From: Eledone cirrhosa
Lineage: Eukaryota
Direction: 5' to 3'
Length of the DNA: 64,000 nucleotides
Assembly: GCA_964016885.1 (NCBI GenBank)
Contig: OZ024741.1
Span: 287,308,001 to 287,372,000 of the forward strand
Shown here one piece after another: positions 24,815 to 59,619 of this stretch (positions within the stretch are counted from its first letter, which is position 1; each line of letters starts with the position of its first letter). The translations under genes were made by a program, and so were the position numbers. Below the pieces are notes generated by a model, which saw nothing but the letters and a program-made list of their open reading frames with translations, was not told the origin of the DNA and made no database searches.

Positions 24815-25660
24815 TTATTTATATACTCATATACACACACACATATATATACACACGCATGTGTACATAGACACATACATACACATCAATATACACTCGT
24901 ATAAAAATATACATACATGCAAAGAGATAAGCGTGCTGATTGTAATTATGGCAAAAGGAAGGTAAAGTTACATTGTAGTAGTGATTTGAGAAATTCTTGG
25001 ATTTAGGATCAAGTGATGGCAGCAGCTGAGAAGGAATAAGTTTATGGGTTGAAGAGGTACTTACAGACATTTGTGTGGTATAGACCTGTGAAGGCTAGAG
25101 TATACTTAATGAGTATATTTCTGTGGTGATTTATGCAGGGTAGTGGGTATCCTAGTTTAAAGCTATGTTGTGTTGGTTCGATTCACGGAGGTTTGAATCT
25201 TATGAATTTAGTGGCAATTCTATGTCTGCAGAAGATAGATCTTTCTAACTTATTGTTAAGTAGCCTTTTTACATTTTTGAGGATATACATTAGTTCTAGA
25301 TCACATAGCCCGCAGTGGGACATACCTGTACTATAGGTTTTAGCAGCCGACAACTTCGACCAGTTAATACTGTAGTTAGTGCTGCTGTCCTTCAGTTCCC
25401 ATATTTTTTTGGCGAGGGTTGTGGAACCCATAAGTGCACGGTTTTTCATTGAGTGCCTGTGCACATACCATCTTTTTTTAAAAGAACCCGTGGTGGATCC
25501 TATGTAATTCCAGGTGGAGTTATCCGAGTTGACCGTGCACATGTATACTAGGCTCGAATCAAGACATCTGTTCGCCAATGGGCACCTATCTGGTAGGTGA
25601 CAGTTACAGTTTGAGGCGCTATTTTGTGCAGCTTCCACACTCCTGTTTAGTACTCTGTTA
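24230..25660 (-). mobile_element. 5'-truncated Penelope-like element: GIY-YIG end plus family C terminal repeat
   Basis: ORF 25183-25638 followed downstream on the minus strand by a hammerhead-type repeat at 24285-24392 (core mutated to CCGAAGA). Confidence 0.7.
25183..25638 (-). pseudogene. Penelope-like GIY-YIG endonuclease domain fragment
   Basis: CNCHLPDRCPLANRC, SLVY...NYIGST, FKKRW, CGLCDLE, LLN, CRH. Confidence 0.9.
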
Positions 25661-25759
25661 TATGAAAACGCCTTGTTGAGTCAAACCAAGCCAAGCGTTG
25701 ATATCATCCACTACCTGGAATACCATAACTGGACTGCATATAACTATTATTGTTACCCC

Positions 25760-25798
<39 letters not shown>

Positions 25799-26104
25799 AA
25801 AATACATAAATATTATATATATATAAAAATAAAAAGGTGGAAGGGGTAAACAAATAGTTGGGAATACGACAAATAATAAATAAATAAATAAATAAATAAA
25901 TAGATAAAGGTGGGTATGTAAAGGGTAAGGTAGAAAGTAGGGGGGGGGGGATAAGGAAAATAAATAACATAGGAAAAAGTTTAAATAAAAGGGGAGATAA
26001 GGGAGAAAAAGAATATAAGGGTACAGAAAGTGAGTTCAGAGAATAATAAAAATCGTAGTGGGTGTAAGGCGTAAAGAGCACAGAAAAAGTTCAAGGTGGT
26101 TGAG

Positions 26105-28252
26105 TCATCGTAGGAATATAAATCCAGTTACAGAGCAGATGTGATTTCAGGTGAGGACAACATCTGAAGATCTCGGTCTTGGAGTTCAGGTAAGTTGAAG
26201 TGGCTTTCAAGTTTTGTAGAATACTAAATTTTTTAGTGGTACACAAAGAACAATTCTTTGTGCCCCTTTGGTATTCCCTCGAATGGTCTAAAATAGATCA
26301 ATCGATAGAGTACGGGATGTTTTTATCTTTGAATTCCCACACTTTATTTGCGGGAGCCGTTGCTGTCCTTTTATCAGAGTCTTTAAAAGAAGCGACATGT
26401 GCAAACAACCTAGTTTTGAACCTGTCCTGAGTCATGCCAACATATCGTTCACTCATGACTGGCTGCTTGTTAATGAAAGGTGTTACTTTGGCCTCATATA
26501 CAACGGATTTTGTATTACATTGCCCTGTAATGGGCATTCATCCGGATTCCTGCAACTACATCCTGGATTTATTCTCGTACGATTAGAGTTGGTGATTTTA
26601 GACTTCATTGATGGGCAACAAGAGTAACTGATTTTAACTACATTTCTATTAAATATCTTATAATGTCTATGATTAGGGGGGAAATGTTTGTCTAAGAGGT
26701 CAAGGAATTTCCTTCCTACATTAGTTTTGACAGTTAGAGAGAAGGGGGGTGTAAACCAAATAATTTTCCTTTTCCTATCATTGTGATTAGTTTTAGGGGG
26801 AGGAGTAGGTAAATATTTAATGTGATCTGTAAAGCCGCTGTTAATAAGGGGCGGCTTTGTTAAAAATGTCTAGAGACGAAGATAAGGTAATATTGGGAAT
26901 AAGATTTTACGGCTAATATTGGGAATACGGCTAATATTGAGAATACGACTAATATTGGGAATAAGATTTTTAAAAACTATAGGGGGATGGCAAGACTCTT
27001 TGTGTATATATCTTAGATTTTCGTTAGGTTTATGATAAGGTTTAAAAGAGGCAGTAAGTAGATCAAGATTAATGTCAAGAAAGTTAGCATTGGTAAGGTT
27101 CGTATCTATAGTAATTTTAAGGTTTAGGTTAGCAAAAGTATTGATTAAATCTTTACGGAATTTATCAAGGTTATGGCCGTTGGTGGTTTGAGAAACTGCC
27201 AATCCGTCGTCACGGTATAAACCGATATTATGGGAAGGAAATTTCTCTTTAAGGGTGTGGAGAAGGAATAATCCTACTAAGTCACACACATCCGCACTGT
27301 CATATGAACACATTGCAACATCAAAAGAGTTTTCAGGGCTTGACGTTTTAACCCAAATACTTTCATTAGTAAAGAGTAGAGATTTCCTAGCATAAAAGAT
27401 AATGTATTCTTCTAATTTAGAAATATTAATGAAGGGTCTTGCAAATCTAAGGCTTTAGTTAATAAGGAAACAGTAATAGAGGGGTAAAAATCAACAATAT
27501 CAAATTGGGTAAATCTACACTTATTTTTACCTTGTATATTATTAAACCAAGAAATAACAGAGGATGTATTTAACCATTGTGATAAGTCAGTCTTAGTTCT
27601 AATTTGAAGAATTATTTTTCTTAAGATTTTTTTTACTTGCAAGTCCAACTTCGGATTTAGCCGGGTTAATCAGTCTACAGCTAGGTCGATTAGTAAAGTC
27701 TAATTTATGGTCTTTAAGGGTAATATATTCTTTACGTTTAGCTAGGCTTTCAATCCGGTTGTCTATTTTTAAAGAACTAGCTAATTCTTTAGCTTCTTTA
27801 TTAATAGTATTGTAGGTGTTATTGTTAGCTAATTGATATTTGTTGGTGATACTATTAGTTAAAAGTTGGTTATACAAAATACTATTAACTTCAAAGAGAT
27901 TTTTAGTTTTATCGGAAAGAACAAAAGTGTTTGTAGAGTTTTTAAAATTAGAAATATCGTTAGAAAGTTTAGTTTGAAAATTATTATTGTACTTACTAAA
28001 TTTGATATCACTAATTAAATTAACAAGGTCTAATTCGAAGTTGGCAATGTCTTTAATTCTAAGTGGGTATTTACGGGATTTTATGTCAAAACAATCATTT
28101 GTATCAGCACTGAATAGACCATCGTAAACCATTGCCTTCCATCTCATTCTTTTAACGACTTGTTCGATTTTATCTATAAGCAGTTTGGTATAAGTTGTGT
28201 TGGAAGGAGTAGGTATATTTTTTATTGAATAATCCAATTCATAAAGGTCCAT
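26105..28252 (-). pseudogene. Penelope-like (Naiad-type) RT + GIY-YIG ORF, near full length with frameshifts
   Basis: YSIKNIP, RMRWKA, SDKT, RLINPAKSE, FDIVDFYPSI, GLYRDDGL, NFLD, IIWFTPP, CSCRNPDECP, VVY...YVG, CSLC. Confidence 0.93.
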
Positions 28253-28465
28253 GGTGTATGTTGGTTAAATTCCTGAAAACTGTAGAGTGCTCAACTAATC
28301 GGGCTGGAAAGTGCCAATCATATATGTAATATAGAATATGCTTCGATCAATCCCGGTTGGAGCTGTGTAAATTAAGTAATTCCGTCGGAAAGGTCCAGGA
28401 AAAAAGTGTGTTCAATGGAGGTTACAGAGCTTATTAGTTATGTAATAAACAACATAAGATAATTA

Positions 28466-33696: not shown

Positions 33697-35357
33697 AAAG
33701 AGAAAACACACGTAAGCATTAAGAGAAGGATTTTATCCAGGTATTTACGACCGTTTCATTGGTAAGTGCAACCTTATATTGCTATACTGCAAATAGCAGC
33801 CACTCAATTATAATTGTTGTTCACAGTCCAAATTTTCAAAATAGTGAGAAAATATATTTGATATAACCCCATATTTAACACCTCTATTGGTACTAACCTA
33901 CCCTCTACCTTCTTTAGAATAATAAATAAGCACTTTCCAGATTCACATAGATACAGCAAAATACTTAACACTAAATCTATTAGACTATCTTACTCCACGG
34001 CACCAAATATAGAGGCACACATTAAGATGCTTAACGCTAAAATGATACATAACAACACCAAAACACAAATTTACAACAATAACAATACAATCACCATTGA
34101 ACACAACAGAATATCTACTACACAACCACCCACTAATAAGCAAACAAAACGTAACACATTTGTACAGGCATCGCAGCCCACCAATAATGCCAAAGTTGCC
34201 CATGACAAGAATTGTAACTGCCACCTACCTGAAACCTGTCCATTACATAATGAATGTATGCAGTCTAACCTGGTTTACCAATGCACAGTAGAATCAGACA
34301 ACCAGAAATGGTATTACATCGGAGCGACTGGGAATACATTTAAAGCCCGTTGGTATACACACCGTTACGCAACGAAACATTCCTAGCATCGTTATGTAAC
34401 TACCCTTGCAAACAAGACCTGGCAACTGAGGGAAAGTAACCATCAATACACCCTGAAGTGGAAAAAATTATCGAACGCGCCTCCATAGTGGTATGAGAAG
34501 CTGTCGATTATGTGACCTTGAGCTGTTCCACATCTTGAGTTCGAAGAATATGTTACTCAATAATAAAATAGAAAAATCAATTATTGTAACCATAGACACA
34601 AAGAGAAGTTTTCGCACCACAAGTGCAAATCGAACCCTTTAACCTCTTACTACCAACTGACAAACTGCATATACTTAGACTTTATACCCTCTTGTTGTAT
34701 CTAAACCCTTTTAATTACCCACAAAAACCAATACCTATATCCCCCCTTCTCCTTCATTCCTCTTCTATTTCTTCGTTTTCTTCCTTCCTTCCCTCCCCTT
34801 TTTGCTATCTTTTCTTTTCTTCTTTCTCCCCCGCCCCCCTCCTTTGCTTTTATTTTTGTCATTATTATCTTTATCTTTATTTTTTATATGTATATTTACC
34901 TCTTTATATCTCCCTCCCCCTCTCTCTCTATCCATCCCTCCCACTATGATCAATTTAATTCTCTTTAACTCACTACATTCCAGGACATGAAGTCTACTTA
35001 CCAAAACTGATCAAGGAATCCTTCCACCTCTATCCCTCCCTCCATCTCAGTTTGTCACTCTACTTCCTAAATCCTCCCCCTTCCCCTCTCTCTCTCTATA
35101 CTATTCCGTCTGTTCCCTCACCTTCTGATTCCTCTCTCTCTATACTAGTAAATACAATTCCAAATAAATGTTTTTCTCTATATATTAAGAATTATTTCAA
35201 GAGTAACTTACTCACTATTTTGAAAATTTGGACTGTGAACAACAATTATAATTGAGTGGCTGCTATTTGCAGTATAGCAATATAAAGTTGCACTTACCAA
35301 TGAAACGGTCGTAAATACCTGGATAAAATCCTTCTCTTAATGCTTACCTGTGTTTTC

Positions 35358-38198: not shown

Positions 38199-38822
38199 AG
38201 ACAATTTTCGAAATTATCATTTTTTAATAGTAGAAAAGATAAAAAAGTGATAAAAAATGAACAATTTTCTATATTGCAGTTCATTGAGTCACATTCCTTG
38301 TAATGTATACGAAAGAGAATATGGAATGAAGAGAAATAATTATTCGATTATACCTCTACTAATTTTAAGAGACTTCTGTGTGATTTCATGTTTTTTTATG
38401 GGGTTTCAAAATGGAGATATATGTCTCAATGAAAATGTAATATATATGATCTAATACGGCAAACTAGAGAAATAGCCGTTAACTAATGGAAAGGTGATAC
38501 ATTCATCAGTTAGTTAAGTATAGATATTATAAATATATCATTTAAAGACGTTATCTATGTGAATTTATCATTTTTTGTGTTTATTTATAATACTGTAAAA
38601 GAAACAAGATAAAATATTTATTGATAATAACTTGATGTGTCAATAAAGCAACTGGAACAATCCATAAATTTTATATCAATAAAGTTAATATCAGATGGAA
38701 GTAATTACAAGGGTCTATATGATCGACTAAAGTTATTGAAAGGCGTGTTCCAGCATGGCCGCAGTCAGAATACTAAGACCAGTAAAAGAAAAGTAATATA
38801 TATTATTCATATATTATTTGAA

Positions 38823-38910
<88 letters not shown>
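38823..38910. repeat. (TATC)n microsatellite, 5' flank of the Tx1-like element
   Basis: Directly visible. Recurs at 44644-44710 and 47393-47520. Confidence 0.97.
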
Positions 38911-38911
<1 letters not shown>

Positions 38912-39128
38912 CTGGGATGGACACACGCGTATAACTTGCTGAGTAAGTTCTGTTTAAATTTTTATAGAAATTCTTGTCTGATAACTTTAATTTTTGTACC
39001 ATTTTGTAGAGGGACTGCCAGGTCAAACTTTGATCTGGTCAGTCTCTCAAAATATTCTACGCCTTTAGGCGAAATAGTTAAACAAAAAAAAAAAGTTTTT
39101 TCTTGTTGAAAAGTCAATATTTTTTTAA

Positions 39129-40876
39129 ATGGCCGAAGCTTCTTCACCAAAATTCGAAGGAGGAAAGGGGAAGATGAACTTACAGCTTCCCCCTGCCACT
39201 GTCACAGTAGCAGAGGTCAAGAAGAAAGGTCAGCCAGAGGAAGAATTCTCTCCACCTGTTAACCGACAACTTGACGTTGCCATGGCAACAACCCAAAGAA
39301 CCAGCAGCAACAGCAACAACAACAACAATGCGACGGACGAAAACAACACCAATAACAATAACAACAACAACAAGACGAATAACGGTGACAACAACAACGA
39401 TAACAACAACACCACCAACGACAACAACAACACAAACAAACAAAATTTCTCCTTCGCCGAGACGACAAGGAAAACCCTCGACTATCTGCCAGTAGATATA
39501 ACAAAAGCGAAGAAGCTACTGGCGGATGCGAAAAAATATATAGTGTACGGGGAAAATGGTTCATTCACAATCCATTCCCCCCCCCCCCGGAACTAAAAAG
39601 CCAGAGACTCCTAAACACGGTCATGTTTAGGACAATCTCGAACAAAAGTAAAAAACCAGCTCAACCATCACAGAGCGAGATAGAGCTGGTTTTAAAAGAC
39701 GTCATGAAGGACATCACCTTCATTCAGAAGGATAGACTCTACGGGAGTCTATCCATTCTCATGAAGGACAGGGACACAGCAGTGAAACTGTCCATCAAAC
39801 CAATCACATCCACCGCATACACCTTCTACCCTACGTACATGGGTAGAAGAACACAAAAAATAAAAATCCACACCATCCTGCCGATTATGGACATATGGTG
39901 GGTTTTGACAGGTTTTCTGGACCTGGAGGATGACATGCTGGTGTCCATGGGAAAGGCATCGGGTGACGCGTTCAGTGGAACGAGCCTCGAACTTGTAGTT
40001 CAAATGAGGCCCGAAAGGATCGCCCAGATCCCTGAACGCGTCATACTGGATGATCTAACCTTCATCAACATTACCGTTGAGGGTAGACGGCCCTCGTGTT
40101 ACCTCTGCGGAACCAGAGGTCACCTGAGGGCTGTCTGTCCCCAACTTAATAAGAAAACCCCAATCCTGCCAACACCAGCAACAACTGCACAACCAACACA
40201 ATCACCACAACTACCACTACAAAAACAACCACCACAGCTCAAACCAAAACAAAACAATGTCCAACCCATCCCCTCCACTCAAAAAACAAAAACAATTTCC
40301 AAAACACCCGTACCGCAAACACAACCCGAAAATATACCCCTCCCCTCCAACGCGGAAGATGACCCTAGTTCGTCGTCAGACGAGGAGGAGCACTTCCACA
40401 CAATCAAAAGAAAAAAAAGAAAACACACCTCAGACACACAAATGAAAAAAAACCCTCCCCAAAACATAACACTGACATCAACACAAAAGAGCTCACAACA
40501 ACAGCAAACAAAAAACACCACACAAAAACAAAAACATGCATACACATACATAAACACAAGAAACAAAAAACTGTTAAACATTGTGTACAACAACAATCTA
40601 ATAAAACCACAAGGGCCTAACTTCACCCAGGTAGGGGATTTCCCCCACCTCAAAATGATTAAGGCCCCACAGGACACCTATAAAACTTTAAAAAACAATT
40701 TTAAAGAGGACGTGGGTCCCCCCTGCGTCGGGCCCATTAACCGCGTCCTCCTAAAAAACTATCCCACTCCCTCCCCAAACACCCACACAACTCCAAGCTC
40801 CCCAACTACACAACACACTGATGCCCCACACTTCCACAAACCACCACCCCACCCAACAACCCATCCCCCACCCTAA
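39129..40876 (+). CDS. LINE ORF1 nucleic-acid-binding protein, split by a frameshift at the C-run near 39577-39588
   Basis: CYLCGTRGHLRAVC knuckle. Both halves align to the single ORF at 44917-46221 (FAET..K; FRT.SN; F.PTYMG.RTQKIKI; QMRPERI..IPE; NITVEGR). Confidence 0.85.
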
Positions 40877-40917
40877 TGGAAATTGTGCAGCCCGATACCC
40901 GGGACGCAGAGAGGTAA

Positions 40918-43900
40918 GTGCCTTTTCTCTTCACCACCAACATGGCTATGCTAAGAGTAGGCTGTTTAAATGCGCGTGGCCTGGGCTCAACTTGGAAGCA
41001 AGCAATGCTTCTAAATGACCTCAGGTCACAACGTATAGATGTGATGGTTATTTGCGAGGCCCGGATCAGCAACGTGCGACAGCTGGCCCCCACCTTTGAT
41101 GACTTTGAGATGCACGCATCTCTCTGTCAGCCCGGATGTGGGGGTGGAGTTGTCGTTCTGCTGCAAAAACATCTGGGTCTCGCATCACAGATGGTACATT
41201 TGGACCCGGAGGGTCGACTAGTGGTTCTGGACCTTGGCAGTGGTAAAGGCGGAGCGTTTAGGTTGGTAGCCGCCTACGGCCCTTTCGGGTCAATGCGGCC
41301 GGACTTCTTCCATCGTCTGGAGACTTTTCTAGGGACGTCCCGCTCCTTGCTATTAGTGGGGGACTGGAATGGTATCCTAGATGCACGCTGGGACTACGTA
41401 GGGGCCTGCCCCGATAGAGAGGGGTGTAATATCCTCAAAGGGTTAATCGGTCGATTTGACCTGGCCGATAGATATCGACTAGATTTTCCGACTGCGCCAA
41501 CCTGGACTTGGGCAAATCGTAGCGGATCATCTAGGTCGTACCTAGATAGGTTCTTAGTTAGAATTAAGGATAAGGACTTTTTAAGTTGTCCAAAAATGCG
41601 CATGGTTGGCTATTCAGACCACAAATTAGTGACCTGCATGGTCAACCTTGACAGAACTCATAGACAGGGCCCCGGTTACTGGAAGCTCAACTTGTCCTTG
41701 CCGGCAAGTAGAGCCTACAGGAATCGGATTAGTACGTTAGTTAAGGAACGGTTGACTGGAGCGATCGTCAACAGCATGTGGTGGGTATCTCTAAAGAGAG
41801 AGATTAGAGTAGTCTCGATAGAATTTAGTAAGGTTCTAGCTGCGGATAGGAATAGGAAGGAAAGGGAGCTAATAGATAGAGTAGAAGAGGCAATTAGAAG
41901 CGGCGACGTGGCCAGAGTGCTAGCGTCGAGAACGGCTTTGAGCCAGTTTTTCGACGCGAAGCACGAAGGCTGCGTTGTCCGAAGTAAAATACGTGCTCTA
42001 GGGAACGAGGGGACCAAAGCTGTTAGCTGGGCCCGCGTGACAGAGGCCAACAGTGGAACTAAATCCACCATCCGGTCTTTGCGAGACCTGGATGGACGGG
42101 CGATTCTTGAGCCTAAGCAGATGTGTGAGGCCTTTCAAAGGCACTTTGCCCGACTGTTCGGGAGGGGCGGGGAGCCGGTTGGGAACGTGGACTTCGGTCC
42201 ATACCTCGACGGCCTGCCGCGCCTCTCGGACAGGGAGGCTAAGTCCTGCGAGAAGCCGATTTCGGCCGCTGAGATAGAGGACGTGCTGAGCCAATGCGGC
42301 AAACGCAAATCCCCGGGTCTCGATGGTCTTCCTTACGAATTATATCTAGCTATGCCGGACTTGTTCCCCGATCTCCTCGAGGCGGTCTACTGCAACTGGC
42401 AACAGAACGGGAGAATTCCCTGTACTGTGACCAAGGGCGTATTCACGCTAGTGAGGAAGGACGAGAACAAGGGGGACGAAATAAGTTACTTCAGGCCCAT
42501 AACTCTGCTAAATACAGAGTTACAGATTTTGGCCAAGGTGCTAGCAAAGAGGTTGGCGCTTGTCGTGGGCAACCTGGTGGGAGATGCGCAGACATGCGCT
42601 ATCCCGTCCAGGTCCATCCATGACAACCTCCACCTCATGCGATACATCATAGAGAGGGTTGGGAACGAACCCGGCTTTGGTGGGGCTCTGATCAACTTGG
42701 ATCAATCTAAGGCGTTCGATACGGTCGACCATGGTTACCTGGATGCGGTGCTAGCGGCGGCAGGCTTCGGACCCGTTTTCAGGGGCTGGATCACTGCTAT
42801 GCACAGCAGCCGCATCTGCTCTAGGGTCAAGGTGAACGGCTACCTCTCGGAGCCGTTCAAAATCGCGCGGTCCATCCGACAAGGGTGCCCTCTCTCCTCC
42901 CTTCTGTATGTGTTGACTCTCGAGCCACTACTGCGGAAGTTGGAGTTGTTGCAGGGCATCCCTTTGGAACCGGGATTGCGGAAAGCGGTGTCGGCCTACG
43001 CCGATGACGTGACAGTAATGGTGTCGACGGCCTCCGAAATCGAGGCGGTCGGCACCTTACTGGAGGAGTACGAAAAGTTCACAGGGGCTAAGCTGAACCG
43101 GGACAAGTCGATCGGTTTGCAACTCGGCACGTGGAGGGGCAGACCGATGCCCTCCGATGGCGTCGTCGGACGCTGGACGGAGGGCCCGGTGAAGTTGCTC
43201 GGGGTCTGGTTCGGACCGGACCTCCAGGTGGAGAAAAACTGGGCGGAGGTTACGAACAGGGTGTTTGCACTGACCCAGACGTGGGCCAGTTGCAAACTAT
43301 CCCTGAAAGGTCGGGCGGAGGTGGCGAACACCTACATAGCGTCCGTCATCTACTACCGCCTGACCGTAGTGCCCTGCCCAAGGGAAACCCTCACCAAGAT
43401 GGAGCGCGCGCTCTTCCAATTCCTTTGGAAGAGGCGGGCGCCTATGGTGAGGAGATCCATCTGCTGTCAACACCCTTCGAAAGGAGGGCTGGGGATGCCG
43501 TGGCTAATGATGCGTAAACACGCATTAAGGCTACGGCACCTCTACGTATTCCTCACCGGACAACCGGTGTGGGCCTCGTTTGTGAGACGAACCTTTCCCA
43601 GACTCGTCTCACTCACCGAGCTGCAATCCTGGGTCAAGCAAAGACCGAGAAAACTGGGCGCCTGGCACACTGAGTGTGCCCAGGCGCTCACCGCCCTCCG
43701 GCAGGCGGATCCAGTTATCAGTGGAGACTCTACCGCAACATTCTATAGAGGGCTGGTACGCAGCAGGTGCGACGACGCCCTCGGAGAAGCCCTAGACATG
43801 GAGGAGGACGAACTGGCCAGCCTGTTCGGTAGGACATTCAGCCCGGGACCTATGGACAACTTCCAGAAGTCCCTAGCCTGGCAGTGCTACCGAGGGGCTT

Positions 43901-44379
43901 TACCCGTTCGAGAAAGGCTCTACAGACACGGGCGCCCGGGTAGGGACCCCGCCAAAAAGATCTGTCCCAGATGCGTGTGCGACGAGGAAACCGTTGCACA
44001 CGCATTGGTACACTGCTCGGGCGTAGCCGATCTGTGGGGCTATGTCGAACAACTGCTGTCAAGGGTGGGACCGATCCGGTTGACCACCGAGTCTATTGTA
44101 ATGATCAAGCCGCCTCCCCCCTTCAAAGATGAAGCAGAGGCGGTGTTTCTGTGCGTAATAGCCATGGCGAAAGAGGTTGTATGGTGGACGCGTCTGAAAG
44201 GACTGAGGTCAGGCACCTTTCTCTCTGGCCAACAACTGGTCCGTTTCTTCCGATATCATTTCGGAAGAAGGATCAGGATGGAGAGAGAGGTGCTGCACCC
44301 CAGCCGTTTATATGAAAGATGGGTGAAAGTGGCGAGAATGGCCCGTGTGAATGGGCCTTCACTCTACATCAGACTATAG
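40918..44379 (+). CDS. LINE ORF2: APE endonuclease + reverse transcriptase + C-terminal Zn finger (first ATG at 40942)
   Basis: LNARGL, GDWN, SYLDR, SDH, GPGYWKLN, KSPGLDG, FRPITLLN, DQSKAFD, IRQGCPLS, YADD, GGLG, CPRC..ETVAHALVHC. 1153 aa uninterrupted. Confidence 0.96.
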   Translation: MPFLFTTNMAMLRVGCLNARGLGSTWKQAMLLNDLRSQRIDVMVICEARISNVRQLAPTFDDFEMHASLCQPGCGGGVVVLLQKHLGLASQMVHLDPEGRLVVLDLGSGKGGAFRLVAAYGPFGSMRPDFFHRLETFLGTSRSLLLVGDWNGILDARWDYVGACPDREGCNILKGLIGRFDLADRYRLDFPTAPTWTWANRSGSSRSYLDRFLVRIKDKDFLSCPKMRMVGYSDHKLVTCMVNLDRTHRQGPGYWKLNLSLPASRAYRNRISTLVKERLTGAIVNSMWWVSLKREIRVVSIEFSKVLAADRNRKERELIDRVEEAIRSGDVARVLASRTALSQFFDAKHEGCVVRSKIRALGNEGTKAVSWARVTEANSGTKSTIRSLRDLDGRAILEPKQMCEAFQRHFARLFGRGGEPVGNVDFGPYLDGLPRLSDREAKSCEKPISAAEIEDVLSQCGKRKSPGLDGLPYELYLAMPDLFPDLLEAVYCNWQQNGRIPCTVTKGVFTLVRKDENKGDEISYFRPITLLNTELQILAKVLAKRLALVVGNLVGDAQTCAIPSRSIHDNLHLMRYIIERVGNEPGFGGALINLDQSKAFDTVDHGYLDAVLAAAGFGPVFRGWITAMHSSRICSRVKVNGYLSEPFKIARSIRQGCPLSSLLYVLTLEPLLRKLELLQGIPLEPGLRKAVSAYADDVTVMVSTASEIEAVGTLLEEYEKFTGAKLNRDKSIGLQLGTWRGRPMPSDGVVGRWTEGPVKLLGVWFGPDLQVEKNWAEVTNRVFALTQTWASCKLSLKGRAEVANTYIASVIYYRLTVVPCPRETLTKMERALFQFLWKRRAPMVRRSICCQHPSKGGLGMPWLMMRKHALRLRHLYVFLTGQPVWASFVRRTFPRLVSLTELQSWVKQRPRKLGAWHTECAQALTALRQADPVISGDSTATFYRGLVRSRCDDALGEALDMEEDELASLFGRTFSPGPMDNFQKSLAWQCYRGALPVRERLYRHGRPGRDPAKKICPRCVCDEETVAHALVHCSGVADLWGYVEQLLSRVGPIRLTTESIVMIKPPPPFKDEAEAVFLCVIAMAKEVVWWTRLKGLRSGTFLSGQQLVRFFRYHFGRRIRMEREVLHPSRLYERWVKVARMARVNGPSLYIRL

Positions 44380-44643
44380 GTGAGGAAGATGAAAGACCAA
44401 GGGAGCACCCCTTCTCTGTGCTCCTGAGGAGAAGGGTTGCACACTTTTTTCGGGGGTGTGTGCGACCCCCCAAGGCGCCTCCTCTCTATTGAGGATTTTG
44501 TTATAAATTTTATTTTTTGTTATATCTTATTTTATTTTTATATTTTGTTATTGCCTCCTCCTTATTGAGGACGCCTTTTTGTGTAAACTCCCCCCTTTGT
44601 ACTTGTCCCACTTTTGATGCCCTAGTGGCAAATAAAAGAAACA

Positions 44644-44698
<55 letters not shown>

Positions 44699-44916
44699 GT
44701 CTTTATCTACCTGGCGCGTGAAAGATCGCCGGTAAGCTTTTTTCTTAATTTCTGTGCAAAAAAAACGAACTAATTGTTTGAAAAAACATATCATTTTGTA
44801 GATTAACTCCCAAGCTGAATTGTCAGCTGGGTGGTAATCCAATTTTTCGCCCCTTTAGGGGCGAAAATTTAATTTAGAAATTGTTTTAAAATATCAAATT
44901 TTGCCAACTATGAAAA

Positions 44917-46221
44917 ATGAATAGCCTGGAAAGAACGCTAGAGAACTTCGAGAGAGAGAAGAGAGGTAGAGAGGCAGATATTAACGTTATATCTGCTTCT
45001 GCTACTATGGACGTCGCCATAGATACGACTGTCACAAAGAGAAAAAAATATTACCACTTGAAGATTTTAAAATTTCTACCGTCTAAGCGGAGAAAAATAA
45101 CAATAACACACAGGCAAACACAGGAATTAAACCTATTAACATACATACACATGAAAAAGACAACATCAACAACTCCACAGATACATCTACACATAAAGTT
45201 TCACCCCGTCAAACTTGAGATTTCCAACACCGAGGCTAACAACGATAGCAACAACAACAACACCACACAAAAAAAAATGCCTTTCGCTGAAACAGTGAAC
45301 AAAAAACAAGATTTTATAAATCTTGACATCTCCAATGCAAGAGATATGCTCCAGCAAGGGAGAAAATTTGTAACTTTCGAAGACAAGGGTGGGTTTAGAA
45401 TTAACTCACCTCTCGAAATAAAAGGAGAGACAGTTCGAAGGACAGTGACCTTTAGGACTGTCTCCAACACAACGAGGAAGCCGATATTTGTTAGTCAAGA
45501 AGATATAGAAACCACCTTCAAGGAGACTCTAGCAAATATTGACTTTCTCCAACGAGGAAAACAATACGGAAGTCTTTCCGTACTGTTTAAAAGCGAGGCG
45601 CTCGCCCCAAAACATTCTGTGTCACCAATGGTGTCAAAAGCATTCACCTTTTTCCCTACGTACATGGGAAAAAGGACACAAAAAATAAAAATAAAAAATA
45701 TACCACCAAACATTAACATCTGGTGGATCTTGACTGGCTTCGTAGCGCCAGAGACTGATATGATTCTTTCGATACCAATGTCTATTAGACAAAGGAGGGC
45801 GGGTACTGATTTGGAGATTCCGATTCAAATGAGGCCGGAGAGAATCTCCAAAATACCCGAAAAAGTCGTCATCGACGACAACAAGAATATAAACATTACG
45901 GTGGAGGGACGAAAACTTCATTGCTTTCGCTGCGGTAGCACATCACACCTAAAAGCCTTCTGTCCTTCACAAACACACCACAAAATCTTAAAAAAACACT
46001 ATTACCAACACCAAAACAACCACCACCACAAGTACAACAGACGAAACGAGCAAACACAACAAAACAAACAGCCACTCAACCAACAACAACAGAAAAAACA
46101 CAGACAACACCCTGAAGAACACAGCTCCACCCGATCCCACTTCATCAAACACTACCACAAATACACACACCGAAACACCACCACAACACAACATACTCCT
46201 ACCCCACACTCCTGGCGATGA
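44917..46221 (+). pseudogene. ORF1 homolog of the second Tx1-like copy
   Basis: CFRCGSTSHLKAFC knuckle. Probably frameshifted in the terminal low-complexity parts. Confidence 0.8.
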
Positions 46222-46274
46222 TTATTCATCGACAGATGAGGCTGTTTCGCCTTCTATCAGTGAAGAAGAAGACA

Positions 46275-47157
46275 GGGTTAAAGATTTTAGCCAAGGTGCT
46301 AACGACGAGGTTAGGCGCTTGTCGTCGAGAACCTGGTAGGGAAAGCGCAAACGTGTTCAATCCCGACCAGGTCCATACACGACAACCTCCACCTCATGCG
46401 ATACATCATAGAGAGGGTGGGTAGTAAACCCGGCTTCGGTGGGGCTCTGATCAATTTGGATCAGTCTAAGGCATTCGATAGGGTCGACCATCAATACTTG
46501 GAAGCGGTTCTCAAGGCGGCCGGTTTCGGTCCCGTTTTCAGAGGCTGGATCGAGGCGATGCACACCAGCATCTGCTCGAGGGTCAAGGTGAACGGCTACC
46601 TATCGGAGCCGTTCGCAATCACACGTTCCATTCGACATGGGTGCCCTCTCTCCTCCATTCTGTATGTATTGACTCTAGAGCCACTACTGCGGAAATTGGA
46701 GCTGTTGCAGGGCATCCCTCTAGAACCGGGAGTGCGCAAAGCGGCGTCGGCTTATGCCGACGACGAGACTGTAATGGTGTCGAGCACCTTGGAAATCGGG
46801 GTGATCGGCAACTTACTGAAAGAATACGAAACGCTGACGGGAACAAAACTAAACCCGCACAAGTCTGTTGGTTTGCAGCCGAATCCATAGTAAGGATCAA
46901 ACCGCCAGCCTCTTTCAAAAGCGAAAGAGAGGCGGTTTTCCTCTGTACAATGGCTATGGTGAAAGAAGTTATATGGTGGACGAGATTGAGAGGACTGAGG
47001 ACAGATGCCTTTCACTTCGGACAACAATTGATTCCCTTCTTTAAGTATCACTTTAGTGGAGAGAGAGGCACTGCACCCCAGTAAATTTACTGAAAGGTGG
47101 GTGAATGAAGCGAAAATAGCCCTAGTGATTGGGCCTTCTCTGTTTTTAAGCCTGTAG
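46275..47157 (+). pseudogene. Deleted ORF2 remnant (RT core and C-terminus)
   Basis: DQSKAFDRVDH, IRHGCPLS, YADD, then IKPP.SFKSEREAVFLC..AM.KEV.WWTRL. Confidence 0.9.
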
Positions 47158-47415
47158 GTTAAAGAAGAGAGCAAAAGGAAGAAAAGAGCACTTGCACAAC
47201 ATGCTCCTTAAGTTGAGGGTTGTTCTATCGATGGGGTATTAAACAACCCATTTGTGGCGCTTCCCTCCTATTGGGGATTTCGATTGTTGTAATTGTTTGT
47301 TTTATATTTTTTACACGACTGTATGTAAAATCCCCGGCATGTGTCTTTGTATAGTCCCCTTTTCTTGTGCGCCCTTGTGGCAAATAAAGAAATATATCTA
47401 TCAATGTATCTATCA

Positions 47416-47454
<39 letters not shown>

Positions 47455-47889
47455 ATTCTGTCTGTCTATCTATCTATCCATTATTCTATCTATCACCTAT
47501 TCTATCTATCCATCGTTCTACCTAACTATTATTATCGATGCTAAAGCAGAGTCTATGTATTAAGAATAACATGTCGAAGTTTCACAGAAATATTTTCATT
47601 GATTAAGACAAGTTACGCACATTTCACAGATGCTTGGCTCAAGATCCATATTGGGGTATAGACCCGATTCCACCATCAATCTACTCATCAGACTTATTAA
47701 TCAGTAAAAACCAAAATTTCGTCCGACAAAACAAGACTGATGAACAGATTGATGTTAGAGTCGGGTCTATAACACGAATATGCACCTTGAGACAATCGTA
47801 TGAGAAACGTTCGTAAATAATCTTAATCAATAAAAACATTCATGTGAAACTTCGTAATGTTATTCTTAATCTCTTTCTCTCTCTCTCTC

Positions 47890-49813: not shown

Positions 49814-50119
49814 GAGATAGAGAGAGAGAGGGGGGAGAGATTTAGAGAGAAAGATAGGTAGTTAGATAGATAACTTTCTTTTTATTTATAGATAGATATA
49901 TAAACACATGCATGCACATACAGAAAAAAACTTACACACACACACGTACTCGCATACATACATACATACATACATACATACATACATACATACATACATA
50001 CATAAATACATACATACATACATACATACATACATACATACATACATTACATGATGATGGCTGCCCCCTCGTTATCGAGTATGGCCATTGCACGATATTC
50101 CATTATTAATAATTATTAA

Positions 50120-50305
50120 TTTGGATTGGCAGTATCGGTAGAGAGTCGGACACCATGCTTTCCAGCATAGTTACGTCCCTTTACGGTCTGAGTTCAAATC
50201 CTGCCGAGGTTTACTTTGCCTTTCATCCTTACGGGGTCGATAAAATAAAGTACCAGTAATACACTGGGTAATTGCTGGCCTTGTGCCTAAAGTAGAAACA
50301 ATTAA
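50120..50305 (+). mobile_element. tRNA-derived SINE, well conserved
   Basis: A-box-like head, GAGTTCAAATCC, core and tail. Confidence 0.9.
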
Positions 50306-50654
50306 TTAATTCTATCGTGCAATGTCTGTGCGTGAAGCTATTTTTTAAAGTGAGGAAAGACTGTGCACTGATCCAAACCAACTCTCTGAGTGACAGTTGC
50401 TATAATCCGAAAAGAAGAAAAGATCAACATTGTCGGTAACTACTGAGCCGGAGGTTTTATGTCGGAGTTATCCCAGTTTCCTGAGTTGCTTTCTTCTAGA
50501 AGAATGCCCTGACAAAGGCTAGAAGTCCTTCACTCGCAGTGGTTTAACCGTGCGATCGGGTTTCCAGCCCGACTATTTCTATGTCCCGGCACATATGTAT
50601 GCACGTGCACAAATGCATATATATATATATATATACATATACATACATACCTAC

Positions 50655-51308
50655 TCATTTTTGGATGGTCGTTGACTCTTATGAGTTCTTCCGCCCTTTG
50701 TCAGGTTTTGTTTTTTGTCCTGTAGGCTGTCCAAAATCACCCTCCTCATCCAGGTAAACTTCGTGGGATTGCTGGTTTAGTCGCCAACGACCCGACCATG
50801 CGACAGGTTGTACTGGATTACATGTGACAAGTAGTACTCAAGTGTGACATACATACATACGTACATACATACATACATACATACATACATACATACATGC
50901 ATGCATACATACATAGTGGCTGCCAACTCGTTTTCGAGTACGGCCACTACTTTTTATGCATGTAGGAGAACCCCTACCGCTGCGCTGAACGAGTGTGACT
51001 TTTTAGTCCAGCCAGCGACTTGAAAACGCTGGTACAAACACTACACTTGTGACAATTATTGACACATAGTGCTGGGCCCATGGTACCATGTGACGACAAG
51101 TGCAGAGAGATCTCCAGATATAAAGTAATGCCTGTGCCGTGAAGCTTTATAGTGAGCAAAGGCACTGCACGAAGCCAGTCCCACTCTCTTAACCAGGGAG
51201 AGATGACCCCTTAGCCTTCGTCAAGGCAGAATTCTAGGAGAAGGAAAACTCTGATATAACACCTGCAACCCTGATGGTATCCAATGATGTTGACTTGTTC
51301 TTCTTTTT
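50655..51308 (-). mobile_element. RTE-type fragments around (CATA)n
   Basis: Minus strand: C-terminal Zn-finger-like CSVCTSVFKSLAGLKSH with stop at 50974, a short 3'UTR hairpin, (ATGT)n, then a 5'UTR-like segment at 50655-50850. An opposite-orientation 5'UTR-like piece lies at about 51160-51308. Confidence 0.55.
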
Positions 51309-51433
51309 GGTAAATATCACATACATACATACATACATACATTCATACATACATACATACATACATACATACATACATACATACATACATACATACATAC
51401 ATACACACACACATACATACATACATACATACA

Positions 51434-54400
51434 TAGCAGAGATATTAACAAGAACAAAACACCACCAAAAATACCATCATATATAACTAAAATAGAAAAT
51501 AAGAGTGCTGACCTACGAAAAAACATAGGACATGTGACAATGCACCTTACAAACACAAAAAAACCTCACTCCTCACCAACAAAGAGTGAAAAATAAAATA
51601 GAGACAATGTTTGGTAACAGTAGAATCAGAACTCTCCAATATAAGCTGATTACCCTCAAACAAGAATTGAGAGCTGTTAGCGAAAAACGCCGATATCTGA
51701 AGAAGGTAGATGAGATAAAAATGCTTAATAAAAGATTCAGACAAAACCAAACATCAGTCTATAGAGATATGAAGGGCAAAATAATAAGTGTCACTGAGGC
51801 CCCATCCCAGAAAGACATAGATTTCTTTTGGAGAAAAATATGGGGTGAAAGGAAGAATTTCAACCAAGATGCAGTGTGGCTAAGAGAAATCCGAAAGAAC
51901 TATTTCTCCTACACTACAACAAAAACATACGAAATAAGTGAGGGTACCCTTGAGACTGTGATAGGAAAACTCCAATATAAGAAAACACCAGGAAGAGACA
52001 TGATTGTCGGCTACTGGTACAAAAAACTAATATTCTATCGGAGGTATCTTACTGACCTCCACCAACAAGTTCTTAAGGGAGATACACTTATACCAGAATG
52101 GTTGACATTAGCACAAACATTACTGGTCCCCAAGAACAAAGACACCCACTTGGCAAAAAACTACCGACCCATTGCATGCCAGAACCTGATGTATAAGATG
52201 TATACAGCCTGCCTCAACCTATTCCTCCAAGATCACTGTGAAAATAATAACAAAATCACAGATGAATAAGCAGCTGGAAAGAAAAGGGTTTGGGATGTGC
52301 TGAACAACTCCTAATCAACAAAACTGCGATGTCGGAGGTGCGACAACTTAGGGGGAATATGACTACAGTCTCGCTGGACTACAAGAAAGCTTTCGATTCT
52401 GTTCCCCACTCTTGGATGATAGAGGCCCTCCAACTTGCTAAAGTCCCAGGCATTATTGTCAGAGCCATAGAGAGGCTGTCTTCTTCTTGGACTACTATCC
52501 TAAGGTTAAAGGCAGAGAGGAAGGACTCTATTTTTACTGATAAAATAAAATATTGCAGGGGTATATTTCAGGGGGACAGTCTCTCTGTGATATTGTTCAT
52601 CTTGTCATTAAACCCCTTGTCCTTTCTGCTCAAGAAATGTGAGGGATACATCATTGGCTCACAGGAGGACAGAAATACGAACCTAACCCATAACTTCTTT
52701 GTGGACGATCTGAAACTCTATGCCAAGAACATGGATGGGATGAAGAAAAATCTTGACCTGGTTACAACGTTCTCAAAGGATATAGGAATGGAGTTTGGCC
52801 AAGATAAATGCTCATACATGACTGTAAAGCGGGGAAAAACAACAATCCGATCTAGCAACATTGTCATCAATGGTCTAACTGTTTCACCGATATCTGATGA
52901 GGACTGCTACAGATACCTGGGGATAGATAAGAACATATCCTATAATGGTATCTGTAATAAAGAACGCGTAACCAGGGAATACTACACCCGATTAAGAAAG
53001 ATCTGGTCATCGGAACTCTCTGCGCAAAACAGAACAGTGGCTCACAATGTGTTTGGAATACTCAATTGGACGATAGACGAAATCCGAGCAGTTGATGTTG
53101 GAACTCGAAAAATACTGAACAACACCTGAAACTTCCACATCAACAGTGATATAGACCGCCTTTACTTGAAATGTAAGCAGGGAGGCAGAGGCCTAACATC
53201 AGTCCAGACAACATTTGAATGTCGCATCATATCTCTCCGACAACATCTACGAACCTCGAAGCGTAGGAGCCCGCTTCTCGAGCAAGCCTATCTGCATGAA
53301 ATAGATAAGATCATGAGAGTTGGGAAGGAACTCCTCGAGAGATATTCCCTGTGTGATAATCAAAAACTCACACCCAGGGATGTTGCTCAGCAGTATCGCA
53401 GTGAATCCATGGATGACAAACTGCATGCCTATCAGCAAAAAAAATCATGCATGGATATGTTGCCAGGTAGCTCCAGAGTGAGAGTAATATAGATAAGGAA
53501 AGTAGTCTATCTTGGACCAACAACCGCTATATTGGCTCCCACTTTGAAGAATACGCTTTTGCAATCCAAGAACAGGAGATTAGCACGAAATACCTGATTC
53601 ACAAAAGAGATAGGGATGCAAGCAAAACACCTAGATGTGATAATAAGTGCAGACTCTGCAGAACTAACATCGAGGATATCACCCATGTCATCAGCAGCTG
53701 CCCAAAGATGTCATCGCGGTACTATCTACCTATGAGGCATGATGTAGTGGCCAAAACACTGTACAATGCAGTTCGTAAAAAAGATAGCCCCGATAATAAA
53801 CACATTAAAAGCTACAACAATGTGGAAGACATCTATGTACATAATATGAAAGAGTACTGGTGGAATATTCCAGTAAAAACGGCAATAAAATGCAGGCATA
53901 ACAGACCAGATATTATGATATGGGACAGGGAGAAGAAAACATGCACAGTAGTGGAAATTAGCTGCCCAGCAGATGCCAATATAATATCAAAGATTAGTGA
54001 AAAGGAGAATATTTATGCAGAACTGATGAAAAATCTGCAGATACTCCACTCTGATTACACCTTCAGATTTATGCCTGTGATTATTGGGGCACTGGGATAT
54101 GTTAGTAACTGCCTCAATACAAATCTTGAGAAGCTAGGCTTCACAGGAACAGAAAGAACACAACTAGTTAGGAAACTACAAGTACAATCCATTAATGGAA
54201 CAGTAAAAATATGTAAAACATTCTAAAAATTTTGCATCTAATAACTGCATATACACATGTACAGATACAAAGCATATACACATGCATAGATACAACTCAA
54301 AATATACACATCCACACATACAATAACATCCATATCTACACATGCATGCACACATACATATCTCCCTAGTTGATGTTGTGTAAATTCCAATGAGAGAGTC

Positions 54401-54472
54401 TTGTGTCTATGTTAGAAACCGACTCTCTCTCTCTATTGGTAAACATTTGTGAAATTATAAAACCAGAAGAAC
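51434..54472 (+). mobile_element. R4/Dong-clade non-LTR retrotransposon, 5'-truncated with stops and frameshifts, inside (CATA)n
   Basis: KTPGRD, NYRPIAC, DYKKAFDSVPHSW, GIFQGDSLS, FVDDLKLY, YRYLG, GGRGL, CRLC...HVISSC, RHD, HNRPD...EISCP (REL). (CATA)n on both sides. Confidence 0.92.
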
Positions 54473-54607
54473 ATACATACATACATACATACATACAGAT
54501 ATATATAAGGCGAAGTGAGGTGGCAGATTTTCGTTCCAAAGTTCTGACTGTATTGGCTTTTCTCGACAATGACATTTACATTTTTCACTGACATGAGTTT
54601 ACGAATG

Positions 54608-56949: not shown

Positions 56950-59619
56950 ATATATAGTAATAATAATAAATTTGAAGACTAAAATCCAAAGAGGGCTCGA
57001 TATGGATAAATATATATCAAATATATAAGAACCTCAGAGCAAATATTTATTAAAATAACAGATTAAAGTTTAAGCAAAGAATCGCTGCTTTCACCTTTAA
57101 CGAGATCTTCTTATATATTTATCCTTATCGAGCTCTCTTTGGATTTTAGTCTTCAAATTTATTATTATTACTATTTGGCTCCCTCGGTGAAGCAATCTAT
57201 TGACTTATATTCATCATACAGAAACAACATCTGAATATTTCTACAAAGAACATACCCGTACCAAGCAGGAAGACATACCTAAAACTCCTGATACAGAAAA
57301 CAGACTCGTTCCTTAAAGGGTTGCTTTAGCGTGCCTTTTATTTCGATAATCAGGAAAAGGCGGACAATAAACAGGATAAATTTGGATTTAAAACTTATAA
57401 TAACCCTCCGAGTAACCCAACATTGCTACCCTTCGAATACGGTGTCGTGGAACTCATACGGAGTATCAAATATCGGAATAGGAGCAATTCCTTCCAGCAG
57501 GACCTGAAGAATAGAATTCGTTCTATTAAGGATTATAATGCCGTGCACGTCAACTCCGACAAAACTGGCAATCTATATCAAGTGGAGTGCAGTACTTACC
57601 ATCAACTGCAACATAATGCTGTCACTAAGGATTACAGGAAAACTAATCGGAGTGTCATTAATGACATCAACAATGCTGGGTTTAAAATCACCTCTGAACT
57701 CAACATCCAGGACCGGATAGAACCTTTGGACCCTATTTCTCACCACTTTACCCTGAAGGATGACAAACCCAATTTCGCCAACAACCCCTCTTATTGACCC
57801 TACGAAGTCTTATTTAGGTAGACTTAGTAAAAGGATTTTAGATAGAATTATACCTGAAATTAGAAGCTTGGCCCCTCTTGCACTGTGGAACAATTCTTTC
57901 ACGGCGATTGATTGGTTCAATGGCATATGCAACAAGGAACATTGCCGTTTTATCCAATTCGACATCAATAACTACTACTCCTCCATCACTTTACCACTTC
58001 TTCTTAGAGCTATCATTTTCGCTAAAACGCTCACGGTGGTTAAGGATTTCGAAGTTGATGTCATCATCAATGCCCGTAAGTCGGTGATTAATTTCGACGA
58101 CCCTATTTGGATTAAAAAATCTAATAGTACCCAATTCGACGTGAGTATGGGCGCCAGCGATTCGGCGGAGGTTACTGATGTTATCGGCCTTTTCATTCTT
58201 TTCTCTATCAAGGAAGAACTCCCCAATGTGAGCGGTGGTTTGTACCATGATGACGGTCTTTTGACCATGACAAATTGCGGTCCACGCACTTGCGACAGGT
58301 TCAGAAAAGAACTCACGGCCTTCTTTAAAAGCTTCAACCTCTCCATACAAGTTGAGGCCAACCGCTCGGTCGTTAATTACCTCGACGTTACCCTCAATTT
58401 ATCGAATGGCTTACATTACCCGTATAGAAAGCCGAATGATACGCATAATTACATAAGTAAGCATTCTAACCATCCTGCCAGCATAACCAAGGACCTGGTA
58501 AGTAACGTTTCTTTGAGGCTTTCCCTTCTATCTACTAACGAGCATGTTTTCAACGACCATTCCACATATTACAATGAAGCTCTTGCTCGGAGTGGATTTG
58601 TCGATAAGGTAGCATATACTAAGTATGAGCATAGACCAAGGAAAAATAGATCCCGACGCATTATATGGTATAACCCACCATATAATATGGAGGTGTTACA
58701 ATATCTTACTCTACGACTGCAAATAACATCACTGCTTCAAATTTAGCTAAATTACCTAGCCATAAGAACACGTGCAACCCTGTAGTTAGTTCTAACTGTA
58801 ATTGTAGGAATCGGGTTGACTGCCCTGTATCCGAGAAACGCCTCTCCAGTAACATTGTCTACAAATGTAAGGTCGAAACACCCACGTCCCGTAGGGCATG
58901 TAGGCCAATAGATTCAAGCAGCGTCTTTACATGAACACCCATTCTTTTCTTAACCCTTTAAGAAGGAATATGACGTCACTCTCAGCTTATATCTGGAGTC
59001 TAAAAGACAACCACACCCAATATAGTTTACACTGGAAGATCCTAGTTAAGGCTAGATCGTATAACGGAAATAAAGACTATGCGATATTTGCGCCGCTGAA
59101 ACCCTGAAAATACTCTACGCCAATGACCACATCTTAAACAAAAAATCTGAGGCAATTTCAGCTTCTAAACATAAATTGCATAAAACTTTCCTGTATTTGA
59201 GCCCCACATTATACCCTAACGGATAGTACGAACAATACGCGGATAATTTACGTCTTGATGTGGTAGCTAAGTATATTTTATATTTATACCATTACTTATT
59301 TGTATAGGTAAGTATACATTACCCGTATGTTTTGTGAAGTTACGTTTACTTTCTCGTACGTATATTTGCTTGTATTTGTTATAGGTGTATATATTATATT
59401 ATATATACTGGTACATGTGTATATGGTTATGTGTATATGTGTATTTTGTGTTTGTGTGTGTATGCGTGTTTGCACGTATGTAAGGTGTGTATATGTGTAC
59501 TTTGTGTTTTGGTTGACGTACGTTTAGTGAACATGTGTATTTACCTGTAGGTATGTATGTGCGTGCGTTATATACGTATTTATGTGTGTATATTTATATA
59601 CGTTTATATAATTATATGT

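Follow-up and report, generated by a model that had tools for sequence, protein, structure and literature searches.

Two diverged L1-group LINEs arranged head to tail within (TATC)n microsatellite arrays

Locus organisation

The window, i.e. the whole stretch of 64,000 bases that was analysed, contains two LINEs in head-to-tail tandem. Along the plus strand, the locus consists of (TATC)22, element 1, (TATC)~16, element 2, and a decayed (TATC)~34. The left array (38823-38911; perfect, 89 bp, 22 units) adjoins the 5' end of element 1. The middle array (44644-44709; about 16 units) is perfect beside element 1 (44644-44698, 55 bp) and degenerate beside element 2 (44699-44709), and TRF extended it to 44709 with 91% matches. 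The right array (47395-47529; about 34 units) is decayed, with 77% matches in TRF. All three arrays are on the plus strand, which bears out the first-pass annotation of two diverged family members, each bounded on both sides by TATC in the same orientation. Around element 1 the repeat is perfect on either flank, and around element 2 it is degenerate on either flank.

Perfect TATC runs of at least 12 bp occur only at 38823-38911, 44644-44698, 47416-47454, and 47465-47478, all on the plus strand; the minus strand of the 64,000-base window has none of that length. In the 55,294 bases outside the locus, no TATC array of at least 16 bp was found. The repeat class is partly present elsewhere in the window, as indicated by two imperfect GATA-like stretches on the plus strand (16335-16383 and 49843-49875). 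The chance that one 5' end abuts an array on the right strand is at most ~3e-4, a bound derived from this window and for a locus that was chosen for its look. Both elements share the same register at their 3' junction (A|TATC), and their 5' ends can be aligned from the repeat onwards. The four junctions have three arrays in common and are therefore not four independent flanks, but belong to one locus with two insertions.

As to the surroundings, blastn and tblastn found no further copies of either element in the 64-kb window. The segment immediately upstream (38640-38822), which presumably resembles a SINE end, has no second copy in the window or among the loci of relatives described below. 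Two ORFs from a neighboring LINE at 51.5-54.2 kb had no significant matches in PDB searches. The window as a whole has many microsatellites.

Element 1 (38912-44643, plus strand, 5732 bp) is a full-length L1/Tx1-group LINE. Its 5' UTR (38912-39128) carries a GTAAGT at 38943, an acceptor-like AG ending at 39009, and two hairpins (approximately 39009-39066). ORF1 (39129-40876) has an Asn-rich N-terminus, an RRM-type core with homology to its counterpart in element 2, and one CCHC knuckle. A frameshift in a run of 12 C (39577-39588) breaks this ORF, and may be genuine or a sequencing error. The 65-nt spacer between the two ORFs holds a putative 5' splice site, recognized by its sequence (GAG|GTAAGT, 40911-40919). 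ORF2 (40942-44379) is open over 1145 aa and encodes an APE endonuclease, an RT (YADD), and a C-terminal CCHC, with Exo_endo_phos, RVT_1, and zf-RVT as Pfam domains. The APE residues N10, E39, D141, N143, D202, D226, and H227 are invariant across eight aligned proteins, and the catalytic residues are intact. The bB6-bB5 loop has 9 residues, a length common to element 1, P0170 (Argonauta), P0171, and P0172, compared with 11 in the sister lineage. The 3' UTR (44380-44643) closes with an AATAAA (44631-44636) and 7 nt. Ahead of this AATAAA is a terminal motif that resembles its counterparts in element 2 and the sister lineage.

Element 2 (44710-47394, plus strand, 2685 bp) is an internally deleted relative, in which the 5' UTR, part of ORF1, an RT fragment, the ORF2 C-terminus, and the 3' UTR are left. 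Its ORF1 core (45277-45969) has a predicted tandem RRM fold followed by a CCHC, and is 50% identical to the core of element 1. The RT fragment (46269-46877) shares 83% DNA identity with 42511-43121 of element 1, with an additional base near the start of the block, and 82% identity at the protein level. The TATC association holds across this 17% DNA divergence in RT. The endonuclease is missing, and two internal deletions (~2.1 kb and ~1 kb of the length of element 1) are accompanied by frameshifts. Element 2 deviates at two of 62 otherwise invariant columns; Q647H lies in a column invariant in the other rows. Splicing was considered as the origin of the deletions and rejected, as the breakpoints show short similarities and no clear splice sites. 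The AATAAA (47383-47388) is followed by 6 nt before the repeat.

Two features of the first-pass annotation have to be adjusted. A fully open ORF2 is found in element 1, but not in element 2, where it is deleted, frameshifted, and devoid of the endonuclease. Furthermore, what had been described as a short A-rich end is actually the AATAAA, with 7 nt after it in element 1 and 6 nt in element 2; neither has poly(A).

Family membership

Element 1 and element 2 belong to the L1 group of non-LTR retrotransposons (L1 and Tx1), as supported by several lines of evidence. The plan of L1-group ORF2 proteins (N-terminal APE, RT, C-terminal CCHC) is found in element 1. The best PDB relative of its ORF2 is human L1 ORF2p, both by sequence (E 6e-45) and by fold (E 4e-54), and the AlphaFold model (pLDDT 84) matches L1 ORF2p. 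In phmmer, ORF2 scored 157 bits against human L1 ORF2p versus 69 bits against R2, a gap that partly comes from the shared APE. ORF1 is of type I, with RRM and CCHC knuckle instead of Transposase_22, and the CCHC is invariant in all 11 aligned ORF1s. A model of the element 2 ORF1 core matched tandem RRM proteins with E 1e-5, at a TM of only ~0.3-0.4. Type I ORF1s are described as typical of Tx1, and also as found in plant L1 (PMC5203782).

The narrower placement in the Tx1 clade, as given by the first-pass annotation, is less firm than the L1/Tx1-group identity read from the domain anatomy. Both the ORF1 with tandem RRM and CCHC and the ORF2 with APE, RT, and CCHC agree with Tx1. A quick RT tree built from 46 selected rows, with no Tx1 or vertebrate L1 reference among them, placed both elements in a 12-row clade with the cuttlefish protein from Acanthosepion (SH-aLRT 99), apart from the plant L1s. 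Four protein searches returned no named Tx1 elements. Among the 120 matches listed, the close ones with an organism name were Argonauta hians (62%) and Acanthosepion pharaonis (47%), both cephalopods; the host is probably an octopod. The only named members in the protein cluster look-ups were Phallusia and Patella, and the APE-RT clusters of the ESM Atlas have no taxa attached. Element 1 behaves like a microsatellite-targeting Tx1 element, and probably is one.

Other affiliations were considered. Microsatellite-tailed LINEs are known from the RTE clade, the members of which have a single long ORF or a very short ORF1 and no C-terminal CCHC. The long ORF1 with RRM and CCHC, and the zf-RVT in ORF2, led us to reject this clade. 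The Kibi/Koshi lineage does not match in target: it uses (TC)n/(TTC)n/(TTCC)n/(TTTC)n, and the flanking repeat here is TATC. A hammerhead in the 3' UTR was also dismissed, as by eye the core-like heptamer is absent from element 2. Rfam searches with the UTRs gave four matches up to E 5, all far under the gathering scores, and revealed no ribozyme or known RNA family.

A sister lineage with variable junctions

Relatives were found by a scan of prokaryotic genome contigs (229 stretches, 136 relatives), of which the best 80 of 136 were used, corresponding to 43 loci. Forty-one of these loci are on 16 contigs from a single MAG record set. The contigs look like animal DNA binned with a bacterium, because GC content is 29-41% in the seven non-element flanks that were sampled, where no open frame exceeds 118 codons and (AT)n runs occur in several. 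The sister elements are about 40% identical to element 1 ORF2 (about 41% in the endonuclease), and are arranged head to tail, mostly 6.4-6.9 kb apart. Of their 53 distinct full-length ORF2s, 52 are open. Perfect TATC arrays of at least 16 bp are absent from all 43 loci, as are 24-nt windows with 21 matches to TATC.

A motif search on the 16 contigs retrieved 63 distinct sister 3' ends, in which a conserved motif and AATAAA are followed by a family-specific junction. In 108 hits, with overlapping loci counted, AATAAA was followed by at most 4 consecutive A, so that poly(A) is missing here as well. On 15 contigs, the endonucleases are 90-100% identical, yet there are eight unrelated junction types; the bB6-bB5 loop is the same on 13 of these contigs and has one change on the other two. 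Across the nine families, contig 12 included, the junctions resemble one another no more than shuffled sequences do (p=0.81).

In two of the 16 contigs, the junctions are 17-18 nt long and resemble target duplications; within a TATC repeat, any such duplication would be invisible. On contig 8, an identical 17 nt precedes full-length and 5'-truncated copies alike, as well as the outer flank. On contig 16, both outer ends carry an 18-nt junction, with 16 of 18 positions identical. The endonucleases of these two families are 92% identical and share the same bB6-bB5 loop, whereas their junctions differ. The outer ends on contig 18 match partially (8 of the first 10 nt), and the outer 5' flank on contig 2 does not carry the junction. 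In most sister families, the junction is indistinguishable from a variable 5' end. Two truncated copies have a common breakpoint, and because of this recurrence some of the tandem units may come from DNA-level duplication. Such duplication would make junctions family-specific even without RNA guidance.

More distant relatives were also observed. A Patella cluster (29% identity) has 11 members with neighboring locus tags (SNE40_003393-003415), which suggests a tandem array, and one distant relative (L041) is located at a U1 snRNA gene.

Probable insertion into the repeat, and alternatives

It is likely that the elements inserted into a pre-existing TATC array, as all four junctions are accounted for by this one rule. 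Both 5' ends directly follow TATC, which supports the view of the first-pass annotation that TATC is the target rather than the tail. A LINE has been regarded as target-specific when more than 20% of its flanks are of one sequence type (methods of PMC4494074); here, the flanks of two out of two copies are of TATC type, both at a single locus, and the likelihood given above refers to this one locus. Element 2 most likely inserted before element 1, because the repeat is degenerate around the former and perfect around the latter. Accordingly, element 1 is presumably the younger insertion.

There is about an even chance that we are dealing with two subfamilies of a cephalopod L1/Tx1-group LINE, which combine a nick in the GATA strand with priming by a transcript that extends some units beyond the element into the TATC. 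The insertion would take place by target-primed reverse transcription. For such LINEs, it is established that the APE endonuclease nicks the target and that the freed 3' end primes the synthesis. At this locus, the APE domain would nick the bottom, (GATA)n strand, and the released 3' end would prime the RT. The transcript would read a few units into the flanking TATC. It would likely end in UAUC units, because the AATAAA is only 6-7 nt before the repeat; cleavage occurs 10-30 nt after AAUAAA. This UAUC end could pair with the nicked strand and prime copying in place of poly(A), and a tolerant endonuclease would share the choice of site with the RNA end. Inside the repeat, the target duplication would be hidden and the target site regenerated, so that later copies could enter the same array in the same orientation. 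In terms of order, element 2 would have landed in the TATC array first and then decayed, and element 1 would later have landed in the portion remaining 5' of element 2. Target and tail are plausibly compatible rather than exclusive, since the proximity of AATAAA to the repeat allows the RNA to end in UAUC. Pairing between RNA and target has precedents in the I factor, R1Bm, and R2Ol (as reported in PMC6007223), and in SART1Bm (as reported in PMC7265360).

It is possible, though in our view doubtful, that the endonuclease decides by itself. The APE domain would then read (GATA)n/(TATC)n and fix the site, as in Tx1L, Kibi, and Koshi, and the RNA end would be irrelevant. In the literature, target choice is credited mainly to the endonuclease (PMC4494074), and this enzyme is reported to determine the site in Tx1L and SART/TRAS (PMC1950540, PMC7265360). 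A fixed nick would agree with the register shared by the two 3' junctions. Furthermore, the surface loops of element 1 are unlike those of the sister lineage, with the 9-residue length it shares with P0170, P0171, and P0172. Because of these loops, and because its endonuclease is only ~41% identical, the behavior of the sister lineage need not apply to element 1. Against a decision by the endonuclease alone stand the sister families, where near-identical enzymes go with eight unrelated junctions, and the lack of a poly(A) to prime from at either 3' end. The sister families favor pairing by the RNA 3' end, and they weaken the claim of the first-pass annotation that the APE endonuclease is specific for (GATA)n. 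Taken with the AATAAA near the repeat, the uncopied poly(A), and the uncoupling of sister junctions from the enzyme, we favor the combination of nick and RNA priming over the endonuclease alone.

A third reading, which we find improbable, is that the RNA bears TATC ends and lands by homology beside older kin, plain TATC arrays not being targets. The sister lineage does stack beside its own copies, the neighboring Patella locus tags suggest the same, and every perfect TATC run in the window touches element 1 or element 2. However, if the order deduced from repeat decay is right, element 1 lies on the 5' side of element 2, with 66 bp of repeat between them, and not at a family 3' end. In addition, the 89-bp perfect 5' array would need to be copied from RNA.

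Even less credible is that TATC is only a 3' tail, as in RTE/CR1, with the 5' arrays and the tandem being coincidental, or with the left array being the tail of an unrelated upstream repeat. Microsatellite tails are indeed described as common in RTE LINEs, octopus included (PMC6007223, PMC9115989), and the abundance of microsatellites in the window fits with this. Two separate coincidences would be required though: an array abutting the 5' end of element 1 by chance (the bound given above), and two kin adjoining on one strand. Moreover, if the left array were the tail of such an upstream repeat, it would still have offered a TATC target before element 1 arrived. Finally, an assembly artefact, in which unrelated pieces were joined via TATC arrays, is extremely improbable: the C12 frameshift hints at homopolymer error, but the arrays are short (55-135 bp), and a false join would still need TATC before each 5' end and after each 3' end.

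Insertion by nick and RNA priming can be extended to a bolder suggestion, which we consider rather unlikely. In this cephalopod lineage, the short stretch of RNA beyond the AATAAA would, for the most part, program the landing site, with one nearly constant endonuclease serving many 17-18 nt sites and building head-to-tail arrays, and the TATC-capturing branch would be able to use every TATC microsatellite. If this were true, the LINE would be re-programmable by nature and guided by its RNA end, which would account for the ease with which Tx1-type elements switch targets.

A new microsatellite target alone is a modest extension of the known list, and, going by the literature searched, it would be the first for a cephalopod APE-type LINE. 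The open ORF2 of element 1 makes the target question testable. The sister lineage, with the same endonuclease, different junctions, and no poly(A), allows the shares of protein and RNA end in LINE site choice, a long-standing question, to be tested. Should the RNA end dominate, the lineage would be relevant for site-directed gene insertion.

Comparison with known systems

The Tx1 targets given in PMC4494074 are U2, U5, 5S, satellites, transposons, (TC)n, (TTC)n, (TTCC)n, and (TTTC)n. The terms GATA, TATC, TCTA, ATAG, and octopus had no matches in the text searched, further targets being named in its Fig. 3 and supplements. No TATC/GATA-targeting LINE was found in the literature searched, a scope that stops short of Repbase, Dfam, subscription journals, and bioRxiv supplements. 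TATC is thus apparently a previously unlisted target. For Octopus vulgaris, PMC13282606 tabulates 80 consensus families of L1-Tx1 type, as well as 421 recent insertions that belong to 13 families. The library of that study may therefore already include the TATC family or one of its kin. The main text of that paper is silent on target sites, and TATC, GATA, and "target" had no matches in its supplement, the Zenodo consensus library being outside this scope.

Tx1L from Xenopus and Keno are site-specific APE LINEs of the Tx1 clade; the target of Tx1L is a DNA transposon, and that of Keno is the U2 snRNA gene. Human L1 ORF2p has the same catalytic residues as element 1. Human L1 inserts at TTTT/AA, ends in poly(A), and its ORF1 is of the coiled-coil type II, whereas elements 1 and 2 have a type I ORF1 and no poly(A). 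The bB6-bB5 loop has 11 residues in Tx1L (PMC1950540) and 9 in element 1, as in human L1.

SART1Bm, R1Bm, and TRAS1 are repeat-targeting APE LINEs, as the elements here probably are, and pairing between the RNA 3' region and the nicked target is reported for them (PMC6007223, PMC7265360). Unlike the elements here, they belong to the R1 clade, and SART1Bm has a poly(A) junction, which elements 1 and 2 do not have.

A likeness in anatomy and kind of target, rather than by an RT tree, exists to Kibi, Koshi, and the crocodilian (TTCC)n/(TTTC)n Tx1 families (PMC4494074). These differ in using pyrimidine-only repeats in vertebrates, in contrast to TATC and a cephalopod-type element. As here, they are APE LINEs with a two-ORF plan inside a microsatellite, where the simple repeat offers a harmless and abundant site.

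GTAAGT sites and 5' UTR hairpins

The sense strand of element 1, the longer of the two head-to-tail L1/Tx1-group LINEs, carries GTAAGT only twice, once in the 5' UTR and once in the ORF1-ORF2 spacer. In the window the motif lies at 38943, 40914 and 44732, and it is also present in the units of loci L002-L033. Among ten units examined from tandem LINEs of a sister lineage (about 40% identical to element 1 in ORF2), nine have a perfect AAG|GTAAGT 10 nt upstream of the ORF2 start, which counts for little more than one observation given how closely related these units are; the site is absent from the unit on contig 12. At or past the ORF2 end, all ten have GTAAGT or GTGAGT. These sites may have a role in regulated splicing or U1 binding.

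Each 5' UTR also contains two hairpins, at 39009-39066 in element 1 and 44802-44868 in element 2, which differ in sequence and had no match in an Rfam search. By folding z-score, the 80-nt hairpin window ranked second of 142 in element 1, where 14 of the 142 windows reached a z of -4, and first of 66 in element 2.

Tandem arrays in relatives

In L001-L040 and L043, loci with relatives of element 1 from a scan of prokaryotic genome contigs, tandem eukaryote-type LINEs make up most of sixteen contigs (CAXXMW01...) of a GTDB MAG. Their flanks are AT-rich, with microsatellites, and the contigs are probably host sequence that ended up in a bacterial genome during binning. Tandem arrays in the limpet Patella caerulea are likewise suggested, because eleven members of its protein cluster P0300 (29% identity) have locus tags close to one another (SNE40_003393-003415).

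Other repeats in the window

Upstream of the left (TATC)n array, segment 38640-38822 may resemble a SINE 3' end; no second copy was found in the window or the loci searched. Directly past the decayed right (TATC)n array lies a MITE-like inverted repeat (47559-47870), about 310 bp long and imperfect, with 76% identity.

A broken LINE of another kind, which we take to be R4/Dong-like, occupies 51436-54471, with an RT and C-terminal CCHC and PD..E motifs. Same-strand (CATA)n arrays flank it (51320-51435 and 54472-54495), and it is possibly a second family targeting microsatellites. Several short unique segments in 49953-51435 have (CATA)n arrays at their borders, two of them (about 50055 and 50915) beginning with similar sequence after the array; they could be SINE-like insertions into CATA repeats.

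Other retroelement fragments lie at 13998-15308 (-), 25183-28264 (-), 33862-34386 (+) and 57330-58746 (+). Several are, we assume, Penelope-like pieces, and one is GC-rich with an RPDG motif; a Pfam scan of four of their ORFs gave no matches.

A distant relative beside a U1 snRNA gene

A distant relative at locus L041 (3036-10169, 26% identity) retains an intact two-ORF plan and a short A tail. The single copy seen sits directly downstream of a U1 snRNA gene, and a 163-bp duplication on its other side takes in the U1 3' part. In a passage of PMC4640811 (2015), the listing of non-LTR elements includes none that targets U1.
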